Source: a virus
Virus record (IMG/VR): IMGVR_UViG_3300019888_000001
Coordinates: 18,111 to 82,110 of that record
Length of the DNA stretch: 64,000 nt
Strand: one strand, 5' to 3'
Positions 4,397 to 49,129 of this stretch are shown here, one piece after another. Position 1 is the first letter of the stretch, and the number at the start of each line of letters is the position of its first letter. Position numbers and translations under genes: made by a program. The notes below the pieces were generated by a model. The model made no database searches. It was not told where the DNA came from and worked only from the letters and a program-made list of their open reading frames with translations.

Positions 4397-5132
4397 ATAA
4401 GGTATAAATACTCCCATCTTTACAGCCGTGCACGAGCACAGCTTCTTCTGGAATTGGGACACTATAGTCGTGATAGTTAACAGGATCCACGGCGTCCATA
4501 ACAATTTGATTTTTTTCGTTTCGACGATATCTGCAGGTTCCCCACCTATGGGCAAGCAAGTTTGTGTCGTGAGTTTCTGGAACTACCTCTTCTCCAGTCC
4601 AGGTATCCCAGCTAATCGTTGCGGGCACACTTTGAATCATTTTACACCGCCGCATATAATCGGCAGGGTACGTCGCGACCCCCATTAAGTGGTGCCCTTT
4701 TTCAAACCGCGCTCCAGTTTCAAGATTCTTATAACGAGAAATATTAATGTGGCCCATATATGGTTTTTTAGATTGGGCGTATTCTTTTTCCCAGGTTTCT
4801 AACCAACCTGGCGCGAATGGAAAAACATCGCTTTCTAACCAAAACCACGGAAGAGTATTGTCTTTTGTTTCCAAATAGTCTGCAGTAGCTATAAACATAG
4901 AATTTGGCCCAGCCGGCCACGCTTCATCTTCAAACTCAGGAACCGTGAAGTCTACTTTTTTGAACCCTTTCGCGAGAATCGCTACAATCTCCGGAGCGTC
5001 CAACTTTACGCGCCAAGATGACACCACAAGAGCTTCGTGATCCTGCATACCGCCAAGTTTAACAATTCGTTCTGCTAACGCTCGGGCAAGCATGAAGTCG
5101 CCATAGCTAACGGGAAAAACCGGAAGTATCAT
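4380..5132 (-). CDS. Putative GT-A fold glycosyltransferase-like protein
   Basis: WFWLESDVFP (DxD-like) and C-terminal VLVHGCKD; family assignment is tentative. Confidence 0.5.
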   Translation of the reverse strand: MILPVFPVSYGDFMLARALAERIVKLGGMQDHEALVVSSWRVKLDAPEIVAILAKGFKKVDFTVPEFEDEAWPAGPNSMFIATADYLETKDNTLPWFWLESDVFPFAPGWLETWEKEYAQSKKPYMGHINISRYKNLETGARFEKGHHLMGVATYPADYMRRCKMIQSVPATISWDTWTGEEVVPETHDTNLLAHRWGTCRYRRNEKNQIVMDAVDPVNYHDYSVPIPEEAVLVHGCKDGSIYTLYENQS

Positions 5133-12938: not shown

Positions 12939-13084
12939 TGGGCCTAATCTTACTCATCGTTGTAATTCTCTTGCTGTGTGGGGCCTTCCCTACTGGCGGC
13001 TATGGGTTCGGCGGCGGAGCACACGGAGTCCTCGGACTCATTTTGATAATCATTCTTATCCTGTTTTTACTCGGCAGACTGTAA
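12938..13084 (+). CDS. DUF3309-like small membrane protein (48 aa)
   Basis: MGLILLIVVILLLCGAFPTGGYGFGGGAHGVLGLILIIILILFLLGRL. Confidence 0.8.
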   Translation: MGLILLIVVILLLCGAFPTGGYGFGGGAHGVLGLILIIILILFLLGRL

Positions 13085-13131
13085 AAATTGTTGACAAAAA
13101 TCGCGGGTTTTGGTAGTGTAAAAATACACAA

Positions 13132-13269
13132 ATGTTGTGCCCTAAATGTAAGAAGCAGAAGCAGCATCGGTCTTTTTACTGGCGAAAAGATACCAAAAAT
13201 TTAAGCCTTAGAAGTCATTGTAACCAAATTAAAAAAGTTATAAATAAGGAACTTCCTTGGAAACAATGA
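13132..13269 (+). pseudogene. Probable internally deleted endonuclease VII/HNH remnant
   Basis: MLCPKCKKQK..RSF resembles the N-terminus of 18629-19075, but the ORF is only 45 aa. Confidence 0.45.
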
Positions 13270-14995: not shown

Positions 14996-16101
14996 AAGAA
15001 GAAAAGCACGCGGAGTTCAGCCCGTCGTCTCTTAACAATTTGGAAGTCTGCCCCGGCTGGAGGCACAGACCCGATCAGGAAGGCAAGAAAAGTCCGGCCG
15101 CGGAACTCGGAACAAAGATCCACGAGGCGTTGGAGACTGGGAAGATCGACGAACTTCCAGATGAGGGCGACGCCAAACACATGGCGCGGCAGTGCGTGGA
15201 CTTTATAGATTCCATTATGGCGGATCGACTGCCAGCAACTCCAACTCAGGACTTTCGCGAGCGAAAACTTACAATCAAGCTGGGCGAGGATATGACGACC
15301 TACGGTACTCTTGACAGACTTATTATTTTTGGGCGCAAAGGTTTCTTGGTCGATTACAAGACCGGGCGCCGCGAAGTCATTGACGCCGAGCTAAACCTTC
15401 AAACTTCGGCATACGCATTGGGGGTTTTCCAAGCACATCCTGAACTCGAAACAATTGAGAGCCATATTCTCCTGCCGGCAAGAAACGAGATCTCGAGCTA
15501 CGAGTTCCCCCGCGCCGCTATGCCTGATATGTCGCTTCGAATCAATACTGTTATCAGGCGCGCAATGGAAAACAACCCAGCTTTATACAACCCTCAAGCT
15601 GGCTTATGCGAGTTCTGCGCGCAGCAGGGGTCGTGCCCAGCCCTTGGTAAAAAAGCACTTTTGATTTCCGCGAAACTCGGCCCCGGCCTCGCAATTCCCC
15701 AATCACTCACGGTGAGCAAAGACCGCCCGCAGGATATCCCTCAGATCCTGGCTTTGGCGCCAATCATCGAATCGTGGGCGAAAGGACAGAGAGAAGAAGC
15801 TCTTCGGCTTAACCTTGAAGAGGGAGTCCAAATTGCCGGGTATCAGCGCGTCACTCGATCACTGCCACGGGCGGTGACCAGTGTTCTCGGTGCCTACGAA
15901 GCAGTCAAAGATAAGATTACACTCGAGGCGTATCTGGCTGCATGCAGTAAAGTTTCTGTTCCAGATTTAGAAGATTTTTTTGCTGAACAAGCCCCGAATA
16001 AGAAAAAAGGTAAGGCAAGACAAGAACTAGAAGATAGATTACGAAGCGCAGGGGTTCTAAGAGAATCAAGTGATATATACTATCTTAAAAAGAAAATATG
16101 A
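14992..16101 (+). CDS. PD-(D/E)XK Cas4/DUF2800-like exonuclease
   Basis: HAEFSPSS..C, GTKIHE, GTLD..VDYKTG, CEFC...CP. Confidence 0.88.
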   Translation: MKEEKHAEFSPSSLNNLEVCPGWRHRPDQEGKKSPAAELGTKIHEALETGKIDELPDEGDAKHMARQCVDFIDSIMADRLPATPTQDFRERKLTIKLGEDMTTYGTLDRLIIFGRKGFLVDYKTGRREVIDAELNLQTSAYALGVFQAHPELETIESHILLPARNEISSYEFPRAAMPDMSLRINTVIRRAMENNPALYNPQAGLCEFCAQQGSCPALGKKALLISAKLGPGLAIPQSLTVSKDRPQDIPQILALAPIIESWAKGQREEALRLNLEEGVQIAGYQRVTRSLPRAVTSVLGAYEAVKDKITLEAYLAACSKVSVPDLEDFFAEQAPNKKKGKARQELEDRLRSAGVLRESSDIYYLKKKI

Positions 16102-30665: not shown

Positions 30666-30700
30666 TTGAGCACGCGGCATTCTCGTGTTACTATTCAACA
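30666..30700 (+). promoter_or_regulatory. Promoter of the tRNA, predicted +1 at tRNA nucleotide 1
   Basis: TTGAGC-N17-TACTAT-N5-A30700. Confidence 0.6.
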
Positions 30701-30780
30701 GCAGGATGGACAAGTTCGGTTTAAGTCGCCACGCTCATAACGTGGAGAATTCGTGGGTTCAAATCCCACTCCTGCAACCA
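30700..30780 (+). tRNA. tRNA-Met(CAU), initiator-like variant
   Basis: Acceptor GCAGGA/TCCTGC with A1:A72 mismatch, D stem GAC/GTC, anticodon arm CCACG-CTCATAA-CGTGG, T arm GTGGG-TTCAAAT-CCCAC, encoded CCA. Confidence 0.93.
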
Positions 30781-31077
30781 AATGAAATTTGACAAGGAAG
30801 GATGACGGCTTAGACTTAATTATGAAGACAATAAGATTAGTTGTTGCAACGGTTTTATGTTTGCTTAGCACAACCATGGTGGCATCTGCAGGCTTGATGA
30901 GCTGGATTTACAGCGCTTGCTGGAGTGCCGGATGGTGTGGTGTTAAATGGTAAATAGTTGTATGACACCAGAACAGTTTAAAGTCGTTTTAATGTTATTG
31001 GTTAACATTGAAATGCTGCTAGCTGGGTTACTCCTGGTAGGAATTTTGAAGGGTAGTCCACCTAAAACGCCCTTTAA

Positions 31078-32400: not shown

Positions 32401-32703
32401 TTAGCTCGTTGTCGCGCCTGTAGGCCCGGTAGGCCCCGCGGGTAGCAACGCTGTTACGCTTTGAGTCGCGGCTTTTAAGTTCGCGAGTGCCGTATCGACC
32501 GCCGGGGTTGTTCCGCCGGCAGAGGCCAATGCAGCTTCGAGAGCTGTGACCCCAACACCAATTGCAGTTACTTGATCAGCCACTGCTTGAATGTCGAGAG
32601 CTTCTTGGGATTGCGTTTCCATAATGGTATGCTCCTGGGTTACGAGGCGTTCAAGAAGGTTTTCGATGGCCTTCAAGCGCGACTCTATGTTTCGTTTCGT
32701 CAT
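32401..32703 (-). CDS. Ala-rich coiled-coil protein with GPTGPTG tail
   Basis: 100-aa ATG ORF. Confidence 0.7.
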   Translation of the reverse strand: MTKRNIESRLKAIENLLERLVTQEHTIMETQSQEALDIQAVADQVTAIGVGVTALEAALASAGGTTPAVDTALANLKAATQSVTALLPAGPTGPTGATTS

Positions 32704-32804
32704 GTTCTAAGTTAATCGGGATCCGGCGTAAGCGCTAAGCTTTTATTTGTAAATAGTTTTTGTTAGACGTTTGACAATTCTTTCCTAACAAGACATTTTA
32801 GTTC

Positions 32805-32996
32805 ATGGCCGATCAGATTTCTCAACTTCGAGCAAAAGTCTCGCGAACGCTTGAAGCTAAGGTGATGGCCCGCGGTCGTTTGGTCCGAGCGGATCAAGAG
32901 TGGGCCCAAGCGGTTCGGGCGCTACAACGAGCGGAGCAGGCTGAAGCGCTGGCTCATGCTGAACGGACTCGGGTTTTGGTTCGGTCTGTGCTTTAA
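32805..32996 (+). CDS. Small helical protein
   Basis: TTGACA-N17-CATTTT-N5-ATG; overlaps the non-conserved tail of the HNH on the opposite strand. Confidence 0.55.
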   Translation: MADQISQLRAKVSRTLEAKVMARGRLVRADQEWAQAVRALQRAEQAEALAHAERTRVLVRSVL

Positions 32997-33429
32997 AAAA
33001 TTTTTCATGTTTGAGGCCAGTTGAAATATAGTATTCTTTATTTTCCGCTCGTTTTATCCAATTACAGTTTGAGCATAGACATTGAAAGTTGGCAGGGTTA
33101 TCGCGTACGTATCTATAGTATGCGTGGCGGCTTGGAAAGGTGGCGCGGTGTTTTCTACCTCCTCCATTTATGTGATCAATTTGAAGTGCACGAGTATCTA
33201 AAAAGCCGCATCGGGCACATTTATTGCCGAGAATGTTTAGAATTAGCACGCGCAAATTTTTGCGATAACGAGCGTCGTTTAGTCGGTGTTTTTCTGGATG
33301 CGCTTGGTTATAACGTTTATCGCAAGCTTTTTTCTTTGCTGTTTTGTTATATTTTTTGGTTCGGCGGATTTTTGAAGCGCGCCCGTTAGGAGTGCGGCTC
33401 CATATTTGATACTGGTTTCGGGTTTGCAT
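32857..33429 (-). CDS. HNH endonuclease
   Basis: LGNKCARCG...LQIDHINGGG...QCLCSNCN. Confidence 0.85.
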   Translation of the reverse strand: MQTRNQYQIWSRTPNGRASKIRRTKKYNKTAKKKACDKRYNQAHPEKHRLNDARYRKNLRVLILNILGNKCARCGFLDTRALQIDHINGGGRKHRATFPSRHAYYRYVRDNPANFQCLCSNCNWIKRAENKEYYISTGLKHEKFFKAQTEPKPESVQHEPALQPAPLVVAPEPLGPTLDPLGPNDRGPSP

Positions 33430-33654
33430 TTAAGATAAATTATAGTATAAAAGAAAGTTTTCAAGATATTTTGTCATCGTAGTGGCGTTTGTTTTTTCTG
33501 TGGCAATTGCTTGTCCGGTATGCACAAAATTTTTGTGACATCAAAAATTAATTTTTTCTTCGAGTTAAAAACCTTGTAACCTTCACGTACATAAGGGCTT
33601 ACACCCCACTAGGGGAGGCCATTGCACCAGGGGAACCCTGTCATTCTGAATGAA

Positions 33655-33749
33655 TGAAACAAAATTACATTGAAACAAAATTACATTGAAACAAAATCAT
33701 AGTGTTACCGTGTTACCGTGTTACCGTGTTACCGTGTTACCGTGTTACC
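33655..33749. repeat. Adjacent tandem repeats: 16-mer TGAAACAAAATTACAT x2.7 and 8-mer GTGTTACC x6
   Basis: Read directly at 33655-33697 and 33702-33749. Confidence 0.95.
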
Positions 33750-33782
33750 TTGCGGCACCGGGCGTAGCGTGGAAGGTTTTCG

Positions 33783-33870
33783 CAATTATGAGTCGCAGTG
33801 TTGCAATTTGTCCTGGATTCCATTGCACCGTTGTCTTGTTGCAGGGTTTCAGGGTTGCGACTCATAATTG
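33783..33870. repeat. Perfect 15-bp inverted repeat
   Basis: CAATTATGAGTCGCA (33783-33797) / TGCGACTCATAATTG (33856-33870). Confidence 0.92.
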
Positions 33871-33947
33871 AGATTGCTGAGGACTACCGTTTATCCAACA
33901 TCGAGGATAAAAAATAGTTACCTAAGAGAAATAGTGTTGATGAAGTG

Positions 33948-33964
33948 TTGGCACGAGCTTTGCT
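33948..33964 (+). promoter_or_regulatory. sigma54 (-24/-12) promoter
   Basis: TTGGCACGagctTTGCT matches TGGCACG-N4-TTGC; intergenic and facing the early operon. Confidence 0.75.
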
Positions 33965-33973
33965 AATGCCCTT

Positions 33974-34750
33974 GTTGCCTCGGATGAAATCCGGGCGACC
34001 AAAGCAGCGAAGCTACCTTAGGCAGTTTGATCGCAGTGCAGTAGCAGGTGCGATTGCCTATCGGAGTCTAAGTCGCAAGAGTAGCTGCCCACAGTCGCGC
34101 GAGTAGTAACTGAGGTCGCGGAGCAAAATCGTGGTGGCTTTGTCCAACACGCGGGCAAGCGGTGAAACGTTTGCGAGCGCAATCCTGCGCTTCTCTATTG
34201 TAGAGCAAGAGTCGAAGATACAATGCCGATTAACGGGCGCGCTTGCGTGCTTTACGGCTGAACATGACCTTGTAAAACTGCGATAAGAATCTACATGCGG
34301 CACGAAATGAGAGCGAGACCGCAAAAAGAACGTGCGAGGAAACTCAATATCTCGGCAAAGCTGGTAATGTCAGCAAACGCGAAAGCGGTCAAGTGACCGC
34401 TAAATCGTAGGGAAATTGGCGGCTAGTTGGACTGCAAACTATTAGAAAAGCCAGTCGAAACGAAACGTGGCGCACCTAAGGGCAATAAAAGGATTCGGCG
34501 CTAATTGCGCGGAGTCGAATAAGCTGTGAAGCTGCACAGTAACATCAAAACAAAGCGGCCACCCGGTAGGGATGGTGGATTTCTATTAGGCGTGACGCCT
34601 ATTAACTAAGCATCTCGCGCGGCCGCGATGGTCTGCGCTGAACTAGAGAAATCTGTTAGCGGGCGCACAAGGCGCGCCCGTTTGCACTCTCAATCTTACA
34701 CTTGCGCGCATGTGTGTGCGTTGCGAGGCAAAAACAAGTAAGGTTGAGAA
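33974..34750 (+). ncRNA. Candidate large structured RNA or leader (about 780 nt), family unknown
   Basis: No credible ORF; more than 15 consecutive helices, many needing G-U pairs on the plus strand, with purine-rich and GNRA loops. Confidence 0.65.
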
Positions 34751-34759
34751 AATCAAACT

Positions 34760-35209
34760 ATGGATAACCAATTAACAGTATTCGTGGAGCAAACGAACGC
34801 CCAGATTGCTATTTCCAAAGCTATCGGACTGCCTATCGAGGTAATCCGAAGCAATGGTTCTAAAGCAAACTTCAAGACGTTCGCAGACTCGCGCGGAGTA
34901 GTTATCGACAAAACGGATTCGGATTTTGACAAAGATGCCGCAAGGGCACTTCGCGCAGAATTTAATTCGTTAGTCGCGGAATATCACGCGAAAATTAAAC
35001 CAATCGCAGCGGGAATGCTCGCAGCGGACGGTTTCCGCGTGGCTTCATTGCAGCCTAAATACAACGCTAAATCGGGCGAGTATCAAGGCTGCAATATCGC
35101 AGTTCGACGTGAATTGAAGGGCGCGGCCCTTACACTTCGCGGCGAAAACGCGTTGCTCCGAAAGCAGCTTGCTGAACTGCAAGCCAAGCTATCAGCGTTA
35201 CCAGCCTAA
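34760..35209 (+). CDS. First early gene, hypothetical, with C-terminal coiled coil
   Basis: 149 aa, directly after the structured leader. Confidence 0.8.
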   Translation: MDNQLTVFVEQTNAQIAISKAIGLPIEVIRSNGSKANFKTFADSRGVVIDKTDSDFDKDAARALRAEFNSLVAEYHAKIKPIAAGMLAADGFRVASLQPKYNAKSGEYQGCNIAVRRELKGAALTLRGENALLRKQLAELQAKLSALPA

Positions 35210-35232
35210 CCAAAGCAGGCAATAGCCTACTT

Positions 35233-35279
35233 TGCGAAAAACTGCGCTCAATCTAGGTAGGTTGAGCGCAGACTTCGCA
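35233..35279 (+). promoter_or_regulatory. Intergenic long hairpin (processing or regulatory site)
   Basis: CTGCGCTCAATCT/AGGTTGAGCGCAG plus outer TGCGAA/TTCGCA; no U tract. Confidence 0.6.
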
Positions 35280-35285
35280 GATTTT

Positions 35286-35471
35286 ATGAGACATCACACG
35301 AAAAATGTCTCTCCGCGAAAAGAAAAACGGCATTTGCTTAATCAAATCGCAATTTGTCGAGCGTTAGCGGCGAGGCATCAAATGACACGATCAGAACGCT
35401 CTTGGATGAACGAGCGCCAACGTATCGTTTTTCAGATTAAGATTTTGAAAGGGCAACTAGCCCGAAGTTAA
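35286..35471 (+). CDS. Small basic hypothetical protein
   Basis: ATG just after the hairpin. Confidence 0.55.
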   Translation: MRHHTKNVSPRKEKRHLLNQIAICRALAARHQMTRSERSWMNERQRIVFQIKILKGQLARS

Positions 35472-35474
35472 TAG

Positions 35475-35725
35475 TCAGCGCATAGCCTGCGCTCGTTATG
35501 AACGGCGCGTAATACATATCCCGCCTGTGGTATGTTCAAGCGCGATTAACAGGCACAATTTTCATCGCCGAAACGGTTGGGTTAAAGTCCCACTCTACAG
35601 GCTTGGAAGATATCGAACACGACGCGAGAAATCTGTATTCGTGTGCTCCGGCAGCCCGATGATTATTTACACTACAACTGCGCTCGATCTGAGCGAATAG
35701 CCCGATAAAAACGCGCAGTCGGGCA
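35475..35725 (+). ncRNA. Second candidate structured RNA element
   Basis: ORF-free on the plus strand; stems AGCGCA/TGCGCT, ACATATC/GGTATGT, CACGA/TCGTG, GCCCGA/TCGGGC, ACTGCG/CGCAGT; contains the 24-mer complementary to 38421-38444. Confidence 0.5.
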
Positions 35726-35742
35726 CAATTTACGTTACATTT

Positions 35743-36066
35743 ATGCAAAAAAATAAGAGCGTTTACGTGATTCTGCTCAATTCAGCAGTCGCGGTGCACG
35801 CAAAACTGCGTAAACAGAATCCAAACCGCAATCCACAGAAACCTTGCGTTTATGTAGGAATTACGGGGCTTTCTGTCGAAGAAAGATTTGAGAATCATAA
35901 ACGCGGATATAAATCGTCGCGTTACGCTACGAAATATGCCGTCAGGCTGATGCCTGAATTATACGAGCATCTTAATCCATTGACTTACGACGAGGCGATG
36001 TGCGCAGAAATAACGTTAGCGGAAACCCTTCGTAATGAAGGATATACAGTGGCTGGTGGTCATTAA
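35743..36066 (+). CDS. Stand-alone GIY-YIG nuclease
   Basis: SVYVILL...VYVGITG...ERFENH...E. Confidence 0.85.
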   Translation: MQKNKSVYVILLNSAVAVHAKLRKQNPNRNPQKPCVYVGITGLSVEERFENHKRGYKSSRYATKYAVRLMPELYEHLNPLTYDEAMCAEITLAETLRNEGYTVAGGH

Positions 36067-36840
36067 TATGCAAATAGAAATCAGATCAATAAATGGACGT
36101 GTTATCAGAATCGAAGTAGCCAAAGATACTATTTCATCTGATGATTTGAAGAAACTGATGGATTGGAACAAACAAACTGAAAATCAAATATGACTGAAAC
36201 AGAGAAACAAAACAGCGTGAAACAGTGGGAACGGTTCGGGAACGAACCGGATTCCAAACGTCAAAAACGACTTGACATAATCGAAGCGTATAAAAACCGC
36301 TTCAAAACCGCAAACAGTCAACGCGGGAACTCCAAAAAGGCTAAATAAATGACAACTTACAACGCTACCTGCCAGTTACGTTACAAAACCTTACGCTGGT
36401 CAACTCACACTGTTTACCGCCTTCGTGCGAATACACCAAGCGAAGCATTAAAAATTGCCGATTTGAACGTTCGGCGAGATTTCGATAACCCAGATTTCCA
36501 GTTCAAAAATCTAACCGTAAAACCCGTAACATGTAACAAATAACCCTGATGCAGTGTTGCCAAACAGATTATTCAATGCAGCAGTGTGACGGCTCTGCTG
36601 CCTTGAGTAATTTATGAAAATAACATTAGAAGAATGTATCATGGTGGGCAATGCCGGGTGGGGAATACTCTTCCATTCATGGTTTTGCATGGTTGTTGCA
36701 GGAGTGATGGCGTTGCAGTTATCATACTACTCATTCAGGAAAAGGTTATGACTTTATGAGCAAAACTTCCATCTGGCTTATAGACATCGGCATAGCTATA
36801 TTTATCTGGCTTTTCGGATTCGCTATCGGCCATTACTTAA

Positions 36841-48443: not shown

Positions 48444-49129
48444 CCTTTCAAGAAGCTTTAGAGCCGTTTCGCCGCGAGACGGAACAGATTCTTGCGCTAA
48501 AACACCAGACAAAATCAGAATACTTAACCGCGATTTATAGAGTTGTAACATCACATAGCTTCGATTATGCCTATCATTCGGTTATATGGAAGTCCGAATG
48601 CTATTTAATGACACACTACAAAACCGAATTTTTTAGCGTGGCTAAAAATGCAACTGTAAACCTAACTTTATGATATACATATACAAACTAATGGCAAGAG
48701 CCTTCATTAAGATCGGCACCATGATCTTCCCTATCATGTTGAGCTACGCTCCATCAGAGAACACAGGAATACGTGTCCTTATTTTTGGAGCGAGTCAACC
48801 TGAAGTGAACTCAGCGTGCCGCTCATATATAGAATGGCTCGACGCCGAATACGAAAAACGACAAAATGAAAAAACTAAGTGAGTTAAAATTCAACCAACA
48901 ATTCCGGCTACCAGACTGGCCGGAAACAGGACTGTTTACCTACCTAGGCCCAGACGGGGGATACGGTAAAATTAAAGCGAACGATGCTAAAATCAATCAT
49001 AAATTATGCAAGATGTATGATTCCACCAACGATTTCTTTCATCTTGCTACATGGATAACAGTCACCCCGATCTGCCCTGAATGTGGGCACGTCCAAGATC
49101 ATGAAGCCTGTAACGTAAGAATCGAATGA
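48431..49129 (+). CDS. Three small hypothetical ORFs
   Basis: Coupled ORFs at 48431, 48670 and 48866. Confidence 0.55.

Follow-up and report, generated by a model that had tools for sequence, protein, structure and literature searches.

Positions 33974 to 34759 of the window, by which we mean the whole 64,000-nucleotide (nt) stretch of viral DNA analyzed here (bases 18111 to 82110 of the 82,110-bp IMG/VR record IMGVR_UViG_3300019888_000001), are non-coding and stand immediately upstream of a gene for a protein of 149 amino acids (aa), the first gene of a rightward operon. An earlier note, made from the sequence alone, had read this stretch as a single unrecognized, densely structured RNA of about 780 nt heading the early operon. 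We found that the strongest structure sits about 500 nt rightward of where that note had placed it and overlaps the 149-aa gene. Comparison with a relative supports selection on base pairing in the 3' third of the stretch. Most likely, the stretch is not a free-standing giant RNA but the control or processing region of an early message. We give an even chance to the more specific proposal of a cis-acting leader and messenger RNA (mRNA) domain that lies behind a sigma54-type promoter and would govern the processing, stability, or translation of the message. The features referred to below are as follows, in window coordinates.

33949 to 33963, plus strand: sigma54-type -24/-12 motif TGGCAC-N5-TTGC, the sole exact copy in the window
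33974 to 33999, plus strand: hairpin with which the predicted transcript would begin, present in the minimum free energy (MFE) and centroid structures
33974 to 34489, plus strand: 5' part of the putative leader, non-coding, folding like shuffled sequence (z = -1.60; 6 of 100 shuffles as good)
34271 to 34369, plus strand: leader segment kept in the relative (4 differences in 99 nt)
34370 to 34468, plus strand: variable leader segment, whose 99 letters are replaced by 100 unlike letters in the relative
34490 to 34759, plus strand: structured 3' part of the putative leader (z = -3.78; 1 of 200 shuffles as good)
34490 to 35300, plus strand: entire structured domain, from the 3' leader through the gene to the 3' hairpin; no other part of the genome is as structured
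34558 to 34576, plus strand: hairpin with two compensatory double changes (34561/34573, A-U to U-A; 34563/34570, C-G to U-A)
34688 to 34749, plus strand: two-part hairpin before the gene (12-bp lower stem, asymmetric internal loop, 11-bp upper stem)
34760 to 35209, plus strand: 149-aa gene, first of the rightward operon (coding score, +5.4 per 100 nt)
35242 to 35271, plus strand: 13-bp hairpin after the gene, an inverted repeat 33 nt past the stop codon

The strongest structure in the genome overlaps the first gene of the operon

Across 34640 to 35300, the MFE was -253.7 kcal/mol on the plus strand, compared with -194.8 ± 5.4 kcal/mol for shuffled sequences (z = -10.83); the minus strand gave a z score of -6.48. 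The centroid structure of this region (-247.3 kcal/mol) is nearly the same fold as the MFE structure. When the whole genome was scanned in 818 windows of 400 nt, with the MFE corrected for composition, ranks 1 to 6 all lay within 34491 to 35490 and the peak fell at 34891 to 35290 (z = -5.1). Thus, by the folding scans, the structured element starts with the last third of the leader and continues through the first gene to the hairpin that follows.

The 149-aa gene contributes to this structure in its own right. Against synonymous-codon shuffles, which keep both the protein and its codon usage (n = 150), the gene had an MFE of -164.6 kcal/mol versus -135.6 ± 6.0 kcal/mol (z = -4.84), and none of the 150 shuffles was as good, whereas five control genes gave z scores between -1.85 and +0.13. 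The structure of the gene therefore exceeds what its protein and codon use demand. The earlier note had named the 149-aa protein as a possible partner of the RNA; a tie between the two is real, but it is of another kind than suggested, in that the mRNA of the gene forms the center of the structured region, with two hairpins that share a helix on either side (described below). Four homologues of the protein were found (P0001 to P0004; 97, 72, 68, and 66% identity). The 149-aa protein itself gave no significant match in PHROGs or Pfam even at E values up to 10, comparison with PDB sequences returned nothing better than an E value of 0.3, and the Atlas yielded no usable match, with TM scores under 0.5.

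About one-third of the claimed 780-nt RNA is structured beyond chance. The description as densely structured holds for 34490 to 34759, which folds into a chain of hairpins (34492 to 34516, 34523 to 34540, 34558 to 34576, 34577 to 34653, 34654 to 34684, and 34688 to 34749). On the minus strand, this segment has a z score of -3.10, and its plus-strand MFE lies 14.6 kcal/mol below that of the minus strand. The same description does not hold for 33974 to 34489; 400-nt windows over 33991 to 34590 had z scores of -0.07 to -0.6 and ranked 203 to 363 of 818 genome-wide.

Taken as a whole, the stretch folds better than dinucleotide shuffles on both strands (plus, z = -3.43, 0 of 150 as good; minus, z = -2.15, 3 of 150), and further runs gave z scores of -3.10 (20 shuffles) and -1.80. 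This folding advantage, for which the earlier note had proposed the test, is present, but other windows of 786 nt scored -6.74 (34760 to 35545), -3.48, -2.72, -2.15, -1.82, -0.96, and +1.27; because neighboring windows of this size score similarly or more strongly, the whole-stretch value is not special. The mean z score of 150-nt windows was -1.38 inside the stretch versus -0.85 (standard deviation, 1.4) outside it. Stems of at least 7 pairs, with G-U pairs allowed, numbered 9 on the plus strand against 4.3 ± 1.8 (P = 0.013) and 4 on the minus strand against 4.0.

All 17 of the 17 helix-arm pairs listed in the earlier note are present where it had placed them. The long-range CCTTAGG/CCTAAGG pairing that it had raised is not notable, as chance alone would give about 19 pairs of complementary 7-mers in a sequence of 786 nt. 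Separately, a perfect 11-nt complement, AACGGGCGCGC/GCGCGCCCGTT, links window positions 34232 to 34242 with 34672 to 34682, 429 nt apart in the leader. Both arms also have local partners, and an alternative long-range pairing between these sites is possible.

Compensatory changes in a relative maintain base pairing

The stretch occurs in five soil-metagenome DNA runs from three studies, two of the runs probably being the source sample. The relative used for comparison is a 1,087-nt contig from run X4, which belongs to a different study; all of these contigs are DNA contigs. The relative is unlike the window upstream of 34271. Over 34469 to 35268, it has 49 differences and 2 insertions or deletions in 800 nt, and all pairing counts given here rest on the 36 of these 49 differences that are listed.

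When the 36 changes were placed on the MFE structure of 34469 to 35300, they comprised 5 compensatory doubles, 7 one-sided changes that keep the pair, 7 that break a pair, and 12 at unpaired positions. The compensatory pairs are 34561/34573, 34563/34570, 34698/34739, 34707/34720, and 34999/35032. Random placement of the changes gave a mean of 0.22 compensatory pairs and a maximum of 3 in 5,000 trials; broken pairs numbered 7 against a null of 13.6 ± 2.3 (P = 0.003). The segment 34469 to 34759 alone accounts for 4 compensatory doubles (null mean, 0.2; maximum, 3 in 2,000 trials). Beyond the two doubles in the hairpin at 34558 to 34576, the hairpin at 34688 to 34749 carries A-U to G-C at 34698/34739 and C-G to U-A at 34707/34720, together with a change at 34703 that turns U.G into C-G. 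Inside the gene, 34999/35032 goes from A-U to G-C with both positions at third codon positions. Of the covariation for which the earlier note had proposed a test among homologues, the single relative provides the five doubles in 34469 to 35300; farther upstream, its sequence is replaced at 34370 to 34468 and unlike before 34271.

The same comparison bears on the strand and on the gene. Among one-sided transitions at Watson-Crick pairs, 4 lead to G-U on the plus strand and 1 keeps its pair only on the minus strand, and at three places where the window has a G-U pair the relative has a Watson-Crick pair. The one-sided changes thus lean toward a plus-strand RNA as the selected molecule. Third codon positions account for 11 of the 12 listed changes in the 149-aa gene, and the two amino acid changes, N37K and L71F, are those of P0001; on this third-position bias and the P0001-matching changes, we regard the gene as truly coding. 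The non-coding part diverges faster than the gene part: it has 24 listed differences in 291 nt, whereas in the 509 nt of the gene part 12 are listed and the total is no more than 25.

Searches further afield returned no homologues of the region. Related viral loci anchored on the ligase (n = 78) yielded nothing with either blastn or nhmmer, five whole related records searched with BLAST showed chance matches only (E above 0.2), and a phage collection contained no match to either the DNA or the 149-aa protein. The protein or its alignment likewise found nothing in viral, metagenome, or genome contigs, and a back-translated invariant peptide of the protein had 0 matches in viral contigs. Two apparent homologues of the protein, in loci L080 and L081, were rejected as spurious, being weak matches inside a portal-like open reading frame (ORF) of more than 475 aa. 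The stem pattern of the 3' hairpin had 0 matches in viral contigs and 7 in metagenome contigs, all of them chance matches with no extended likeness.

Two hairpins that share a helix flank the gene

The hairpin at 34688 to 34749 ends 10 nt before the start codon, and its two stems total 23 bp. Its lower stem contains an 8-bp helix, CUCAAUCU/AGGUUGAG, and the identical helix, with the same U.G pair, recurs in the hairpin at 35242 to 35271. Each of the two 8-mers occurs exactly twice in the 82-kb genome, both times in these flanking hairpins, and the joint pattern was seen in 0 of 100 shuffles. The shared core is without change among the listed differences of the relative. The loops of the two hairpins are not alike.

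RNase III signals of phage T7 are built of two stems around an internal loop. The predicted structure at 34688 to 34749 has the same irregular build, with about two helical turns and an internal loop, as these T7 signals, which lie between cistrons of the early transcript. A scan of 32500 to 36500 for terminator-like sites found none between the leader and the gene; a terminator-like hairpin does occur within the leader, at 34175 to 34192. Directly after the second flanking hairpin, a very basic 61-aa ORF begins (window positions 35286 to 35471), with a coding score near zero.

The stretch upstream of the gene is non-coding and matches no Rfam family

TAA, TAG, and TGA are present in all six frames of 33974 to 34759, leaving each frame closed under any single stop reassignment, and the longest plus-strand ORF is 53 aa. 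Coding potential was scored with a frame-specific Markov model trained on 33 long ORFs of the genome. Every frame of 33970 to 34720 scored at most about +3 per 100 nt, and mostly negative, compared with +4 to +8 for the 149-aa gene. The earlier note's reading of the stretch as ORF-free is borne out by these stops and low coding scores, and neither they nor the positions of the substitutions indicate a protein-coding gene or pseudogene. A 33-aa ORF at 34295 to 34396 is unlikely to be coding because both listed changes in it are first-position and non-synonymous.

In Rfam searches of the whole window at gathering scores, only a transfer RNA (tRNA) at 30700 to 30777 was matched. With permissive filters, the covariance models gave 0 matches over 33500 to 35300 at E values up to 10, and among the classes thus absent from that region are ribozymes, group I and II introns, riboswitches, transfer-messenger RNA, RNase P, GOLLD, and ROOL. 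In this respect, the stretch is indeed unrecognized, as the earlier note had it.

A sigma54-type motif precedes the stretch

As the earlier note had it, the stretch lies behind a predicted sigma54-type promoter, with a consensus motif at 33949 to 33963 that has the GG at -24 and GC at -12 of sigma54 (RpoN) promoters within TGGCAC-N5-TTGC. The transcription start predicted from it lies near 33975. Inverted repeats are located 75 to 170 nt upstream of the motif. No enhancer-binding AAA+ activator was identified among the scanned proteins, and no sigma70-like or Bacteroidota-type promoter motif was found on the plus strand of 33300 to 35400. To our knowledge, a sigma54-type promoter, which needs an activator, is no textbook route for phage early transcription; a literature search found no report on phage sigma54/RpoN early promoters among the papers listed.

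A distant relative (L068), with a ligase 43% identical to that of the phage studied here, has six tandem sigma54-type motifs at its positions 4771 to 4919, syntenic to window position 33949. Its order is iterons, then the six motifs, then 530 to 750 nt without a long ORF. Sigma54-like matches in other relatives were rejected as promoters, such as one in L004 that falls inside a 662-aa ORF. When viral contigs were scanned for two sigma54-type motifs spaced 9 to 14 nt apart, such tandem pairs were present in at least 120 viral stretches (L093 to L212), with about 1 expected by chance by our estimate. The arrays (TGGCA[CT]-N5-TTGC) contain 2 to 10 copies at a spacing of about 26 nt, in contigs of 33 to 64% G+C. 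Folding was compared for 62 of the 134 arrays found, taken from those with sufficient flanking sequence. The 300 nt after the arrays had a mean z score of -1.82 versus -0.51 for controls 2 kb further downstream (Wilcoxon P = 1e-4; 62 loci).

A proposed cis-acting mRNA domain and its alternatives

The reading to which we give an even chance runs as follows. Positions 33974 to 34759 would be the untranslated leader of the rightward early operon, probably transcribed from the sigma54-type promoter at 33949 to 33963. The first approximately 500 nt would be a loosely constrained, swappable spacer. One strongly base-paired mRNA domain, at roughly 34490 to 35300, would take in the last 270 nt of the leader together with the 149-aa gene and the hairpin that follows, and this domain would act in cis. 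The two flanking hairpins may be processing or end-protecting signals of the RNase III kind, as in the T7 early transcript, and pairing inside the gene could serve message stability and a tuned translation of the first early protein. We infer the existence of the transcript, its start site, its cleavage, and the role of the structure.

Several points weigh against this reading. The covariation is all drawn from a single contig in a single metagenome, with a depth of about 6, and at least 13 of the 49 differences are unlisted and could break pairs. The earlier note had taken the G-U pairs as a sign of selection on RNA; the excess of stems on the plus strand and the lean of the one-sided changes agree with it, but the 4-to-1 strand count alone is not significant, and energy cannot separate RNA from DNA hairpins in 34640 to 35300 because both strands fold equally well there. 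The 5' approximately 500 nt of the leader, which fold like shuffles, have no explained role. The leader of L068, the only syntenic distant relative, also folds like shuffled sequence (z = 0.06), and the controls in the comparison of 62 arrays were unmatched for coding state. Finally, cleavage by RNase III at this locus is purely conjectural.

The equal folding of the two strands (-253.7 versus -252.0 kcal/mol over 34640 to 35300, with 152 of 219 pairs shared) would fit an element acting as DNA, either a replication origin beside the iterons or the recombination boundaries of a gene cassette like those bordered by PeSLs (see below). Immediately upstream are the iterons and an inverted repeat of 18 nt; a leader module is replaced in the relative, and the gene is bracketed by hairpins that share sequence. 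We consider such an element unlikely nonetheless. The plus strand of 34490 to 34759 folds better by the 14.6 kcal/mol given above, the one-sided changes favor G-U pairs on that strand, and the mismatch in both copies of the shared helix would be a T.G defect in DNA and is a normal pair in RNA. The shared helix is found only twice rather than genome-wide, and the helices, with their differing sequences, do not form a set of repeated sites for a single DNA-binding protein.

A new class of large, free-standing non-coding RNA, acting in trans or as an RNA machine and comprising either the full 780 nt or 34490 to 35300 with an embedded ORF, would fit the lack of an Rfam match, the well-defined fold (centroid close to MFE), and a region that is the top structure outlier of the genome and whose pairing covaries in the relative. 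We nevertheless hold it to be quite improbable. The single ornate RNA of about 780 nt envisaged by the earlier note finds no support: the 5' portion of 516 nt does not exceed chance, parts of it are replaced in the relative, and the structure runs on through the 149-aa gene. No ribozyme or terminator bounds the RNA, and the absence of a terminator-like site between leader and gene counts against a free-standing RNA. The core overlaps a gene under protein-level selection, and no homologues were found in the 78 related loci, the 5 whole records, or the viral, metagenome, and genome collections. A variant to which we attach a similarly slight chance is that 34490 to 35300 represents a new class of early RNA with two functions, launched by a sigma54-type promoter of the kind present in arrays in well over 100 uncultured phages. 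Its ornate, well-defined fold would act as an RNA in the first minutes of infection (for example, as a decoy or shield against host RNA-targeting defenses or nucleases) and would also carry the first early ORF.

Antitermination has about the same small probability. In lambda (nut) and HK022 (put), the first early gene has hairpin signals in its leader, in more than a single copy; lambda nutL sits in the leader of the first pL gene, and a nut site combines a boxA word with an adjacent boxB hairpin. By analogy, the repeated helix would bind a phage factor (the 149-aa protein or the product of the 61-aa ORF) and permit read-through. The recurrence of the 8-bp helix, U.G pair included, on either side of the first gene is in keeping with this, as is the terminator-like hairpin within the leader. 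However, the loops of the two hairpins differ, the 149-aa protein matches no family, and no canonical terminators that need suppression were found downstream within the 32500 to 36500 scan. With a 13-mer boxA consensus and up to 3 mismatches, boxA-like words numbered 28 in the window against 26.3 expected, and none fell within 33974 to 34759. The antitermination leader suggested by the earlier note is thus unsupported, and the locus differs from nut and put in having neither a boxA-like word in the leader nor a known partner protein.

Least probable, and already unlikely for 34490 to 35300, is an absence of function, with chance helices in ordinary intergenic DNA beside a gene that happens to fold well; the shuffle-like 5' 516 nt and the faster divergence of the non-coding part would suit it, but not the 5 compensatory doubles (null, 0.22; 0 of 5,000 placements reach 5), the z score of -10.8, the genome-wide first rank, or the z score of -4.84 against synonymous shuffles.

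Relation to known systems

For the cis-acting mRNA domain, T7 offers the nearest parallel in its R0.3, R0.5, R1, R1.1, and R1.3 sites: there, the host polymerase makes an early transcript that opens with a long non-coding portion and has irregular hairpins on both sides of the first early gene, and a similar layout is predicted here. There is no sequence likeness, and the promoter is of the sigma54 type here and of the sigma70 type in T7. We know of no description of heavy pairing inside T7 gene 0.3 like that within the 149-aa gene. Five cuts in the T7 early precursor yield mRNAs with one or two cistrons (PMC4858673).

PeSLs (promoter-early stem-loops) are composite terminator/promoter stem-loops that mediate gene swapping in T4-type phages (PMC4122927). 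The likeness lies in stem-loops that recur on both sides of small early genes within plastic regions, and in the swapping of modules between close relatives. PeSLs recur many times, whereas the helix shared here has only 2 copies in 82 kb and no promoter-like motif beside it. GOLLD, ROOL, and OLE are presented in PMC12286853 as large ornate RNAs of unknown function that are associated with phages. The region studied here is similar to them in size class and phage association; it differs in that it has no Rfam match, is structured over about one-third of its length, has a core that overlaps a protein gene, and has no homologue family that we could find.

If the cis-acting reading is true, the first early message of this phage would be built as a tightly folded unit in which selection keeps both the protein and the pairing. 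It would offer a clean natural case of mRNA structure, processing hairpins, and coding constraint coexisting at the start of infection. The tandem sigma54-type motifs in at least 120 viral stretches add to the interest of the setting, as they tend to precede better-folding RNA than controls do (62 arrays).

Genomic neighborhood and other observations

The two ends of the record overlap by 21 bp, from which we take the assembly to be circular. Rightward genes up to about 31.8 kb of the window include those for a helicase, an exonuclease, a DNA polymerase, and a primase. A few small leftward genes, one of them encoding an HNH nuclease, end at 33429, and the rightward run from 34760 passes from small ORFs to a ligase, a MoxR-like ATPase, a vWA protein, and rIIA. 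The gap between them (33430 to 34759) contains a 16-mer in three copies, an 8-mer in six copies, and an 18-nt inverted repeat; the iterons span 33655 to 33749, just upstream of the leader. The phage is not clearly N4-like: the ATPase matches N4-like phages at about 35% identity, but the 1,947-aa protein matched no virion RNA polymerase family. Promoters of the N4 hairpin type were considered and dropped.

Each of the 16-mer repeats (window positions 33655 to 33702) carries TAATTTTG on the minus strand, which matches TAnnTTTG, the -7 promoter element of Bacteroidota. The three 16-mers may be tandem leftward promoters for the genes on the HNH side. Shine-Dalgarno sequences were not found before the genes of the phage, and their absence, together with the TAnnTTTG motifs, hints at a Bacteroidota host. 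The octamer GTGTTACC is repeated six times at 33702 to 33749. Contigs of the source run break there, and short contigs across the octamers have 2 to 4 times the depth; the array is a collapsed repeat or varies in copy number.

Other parts of the genome also stand out in folding. At 30900 to 31049, about 120 nt 3' of the tRNA gene, a 150-nt window has a z score of -5.0 on the plus strand and -1.7 on the minus strand; this site, which has no Rfam match at gathering scores, is a candidate strand-specific structure. Four further outliers, at genome positions 15201 to 15400 and 12951 to 13150 (before the start of the window) and at window positions 48691 to 48840 and 36541 to 36690, have 150-nt windows with z scores of -3.4 to -4.4, among ranks 2 to 10 of 1,640.

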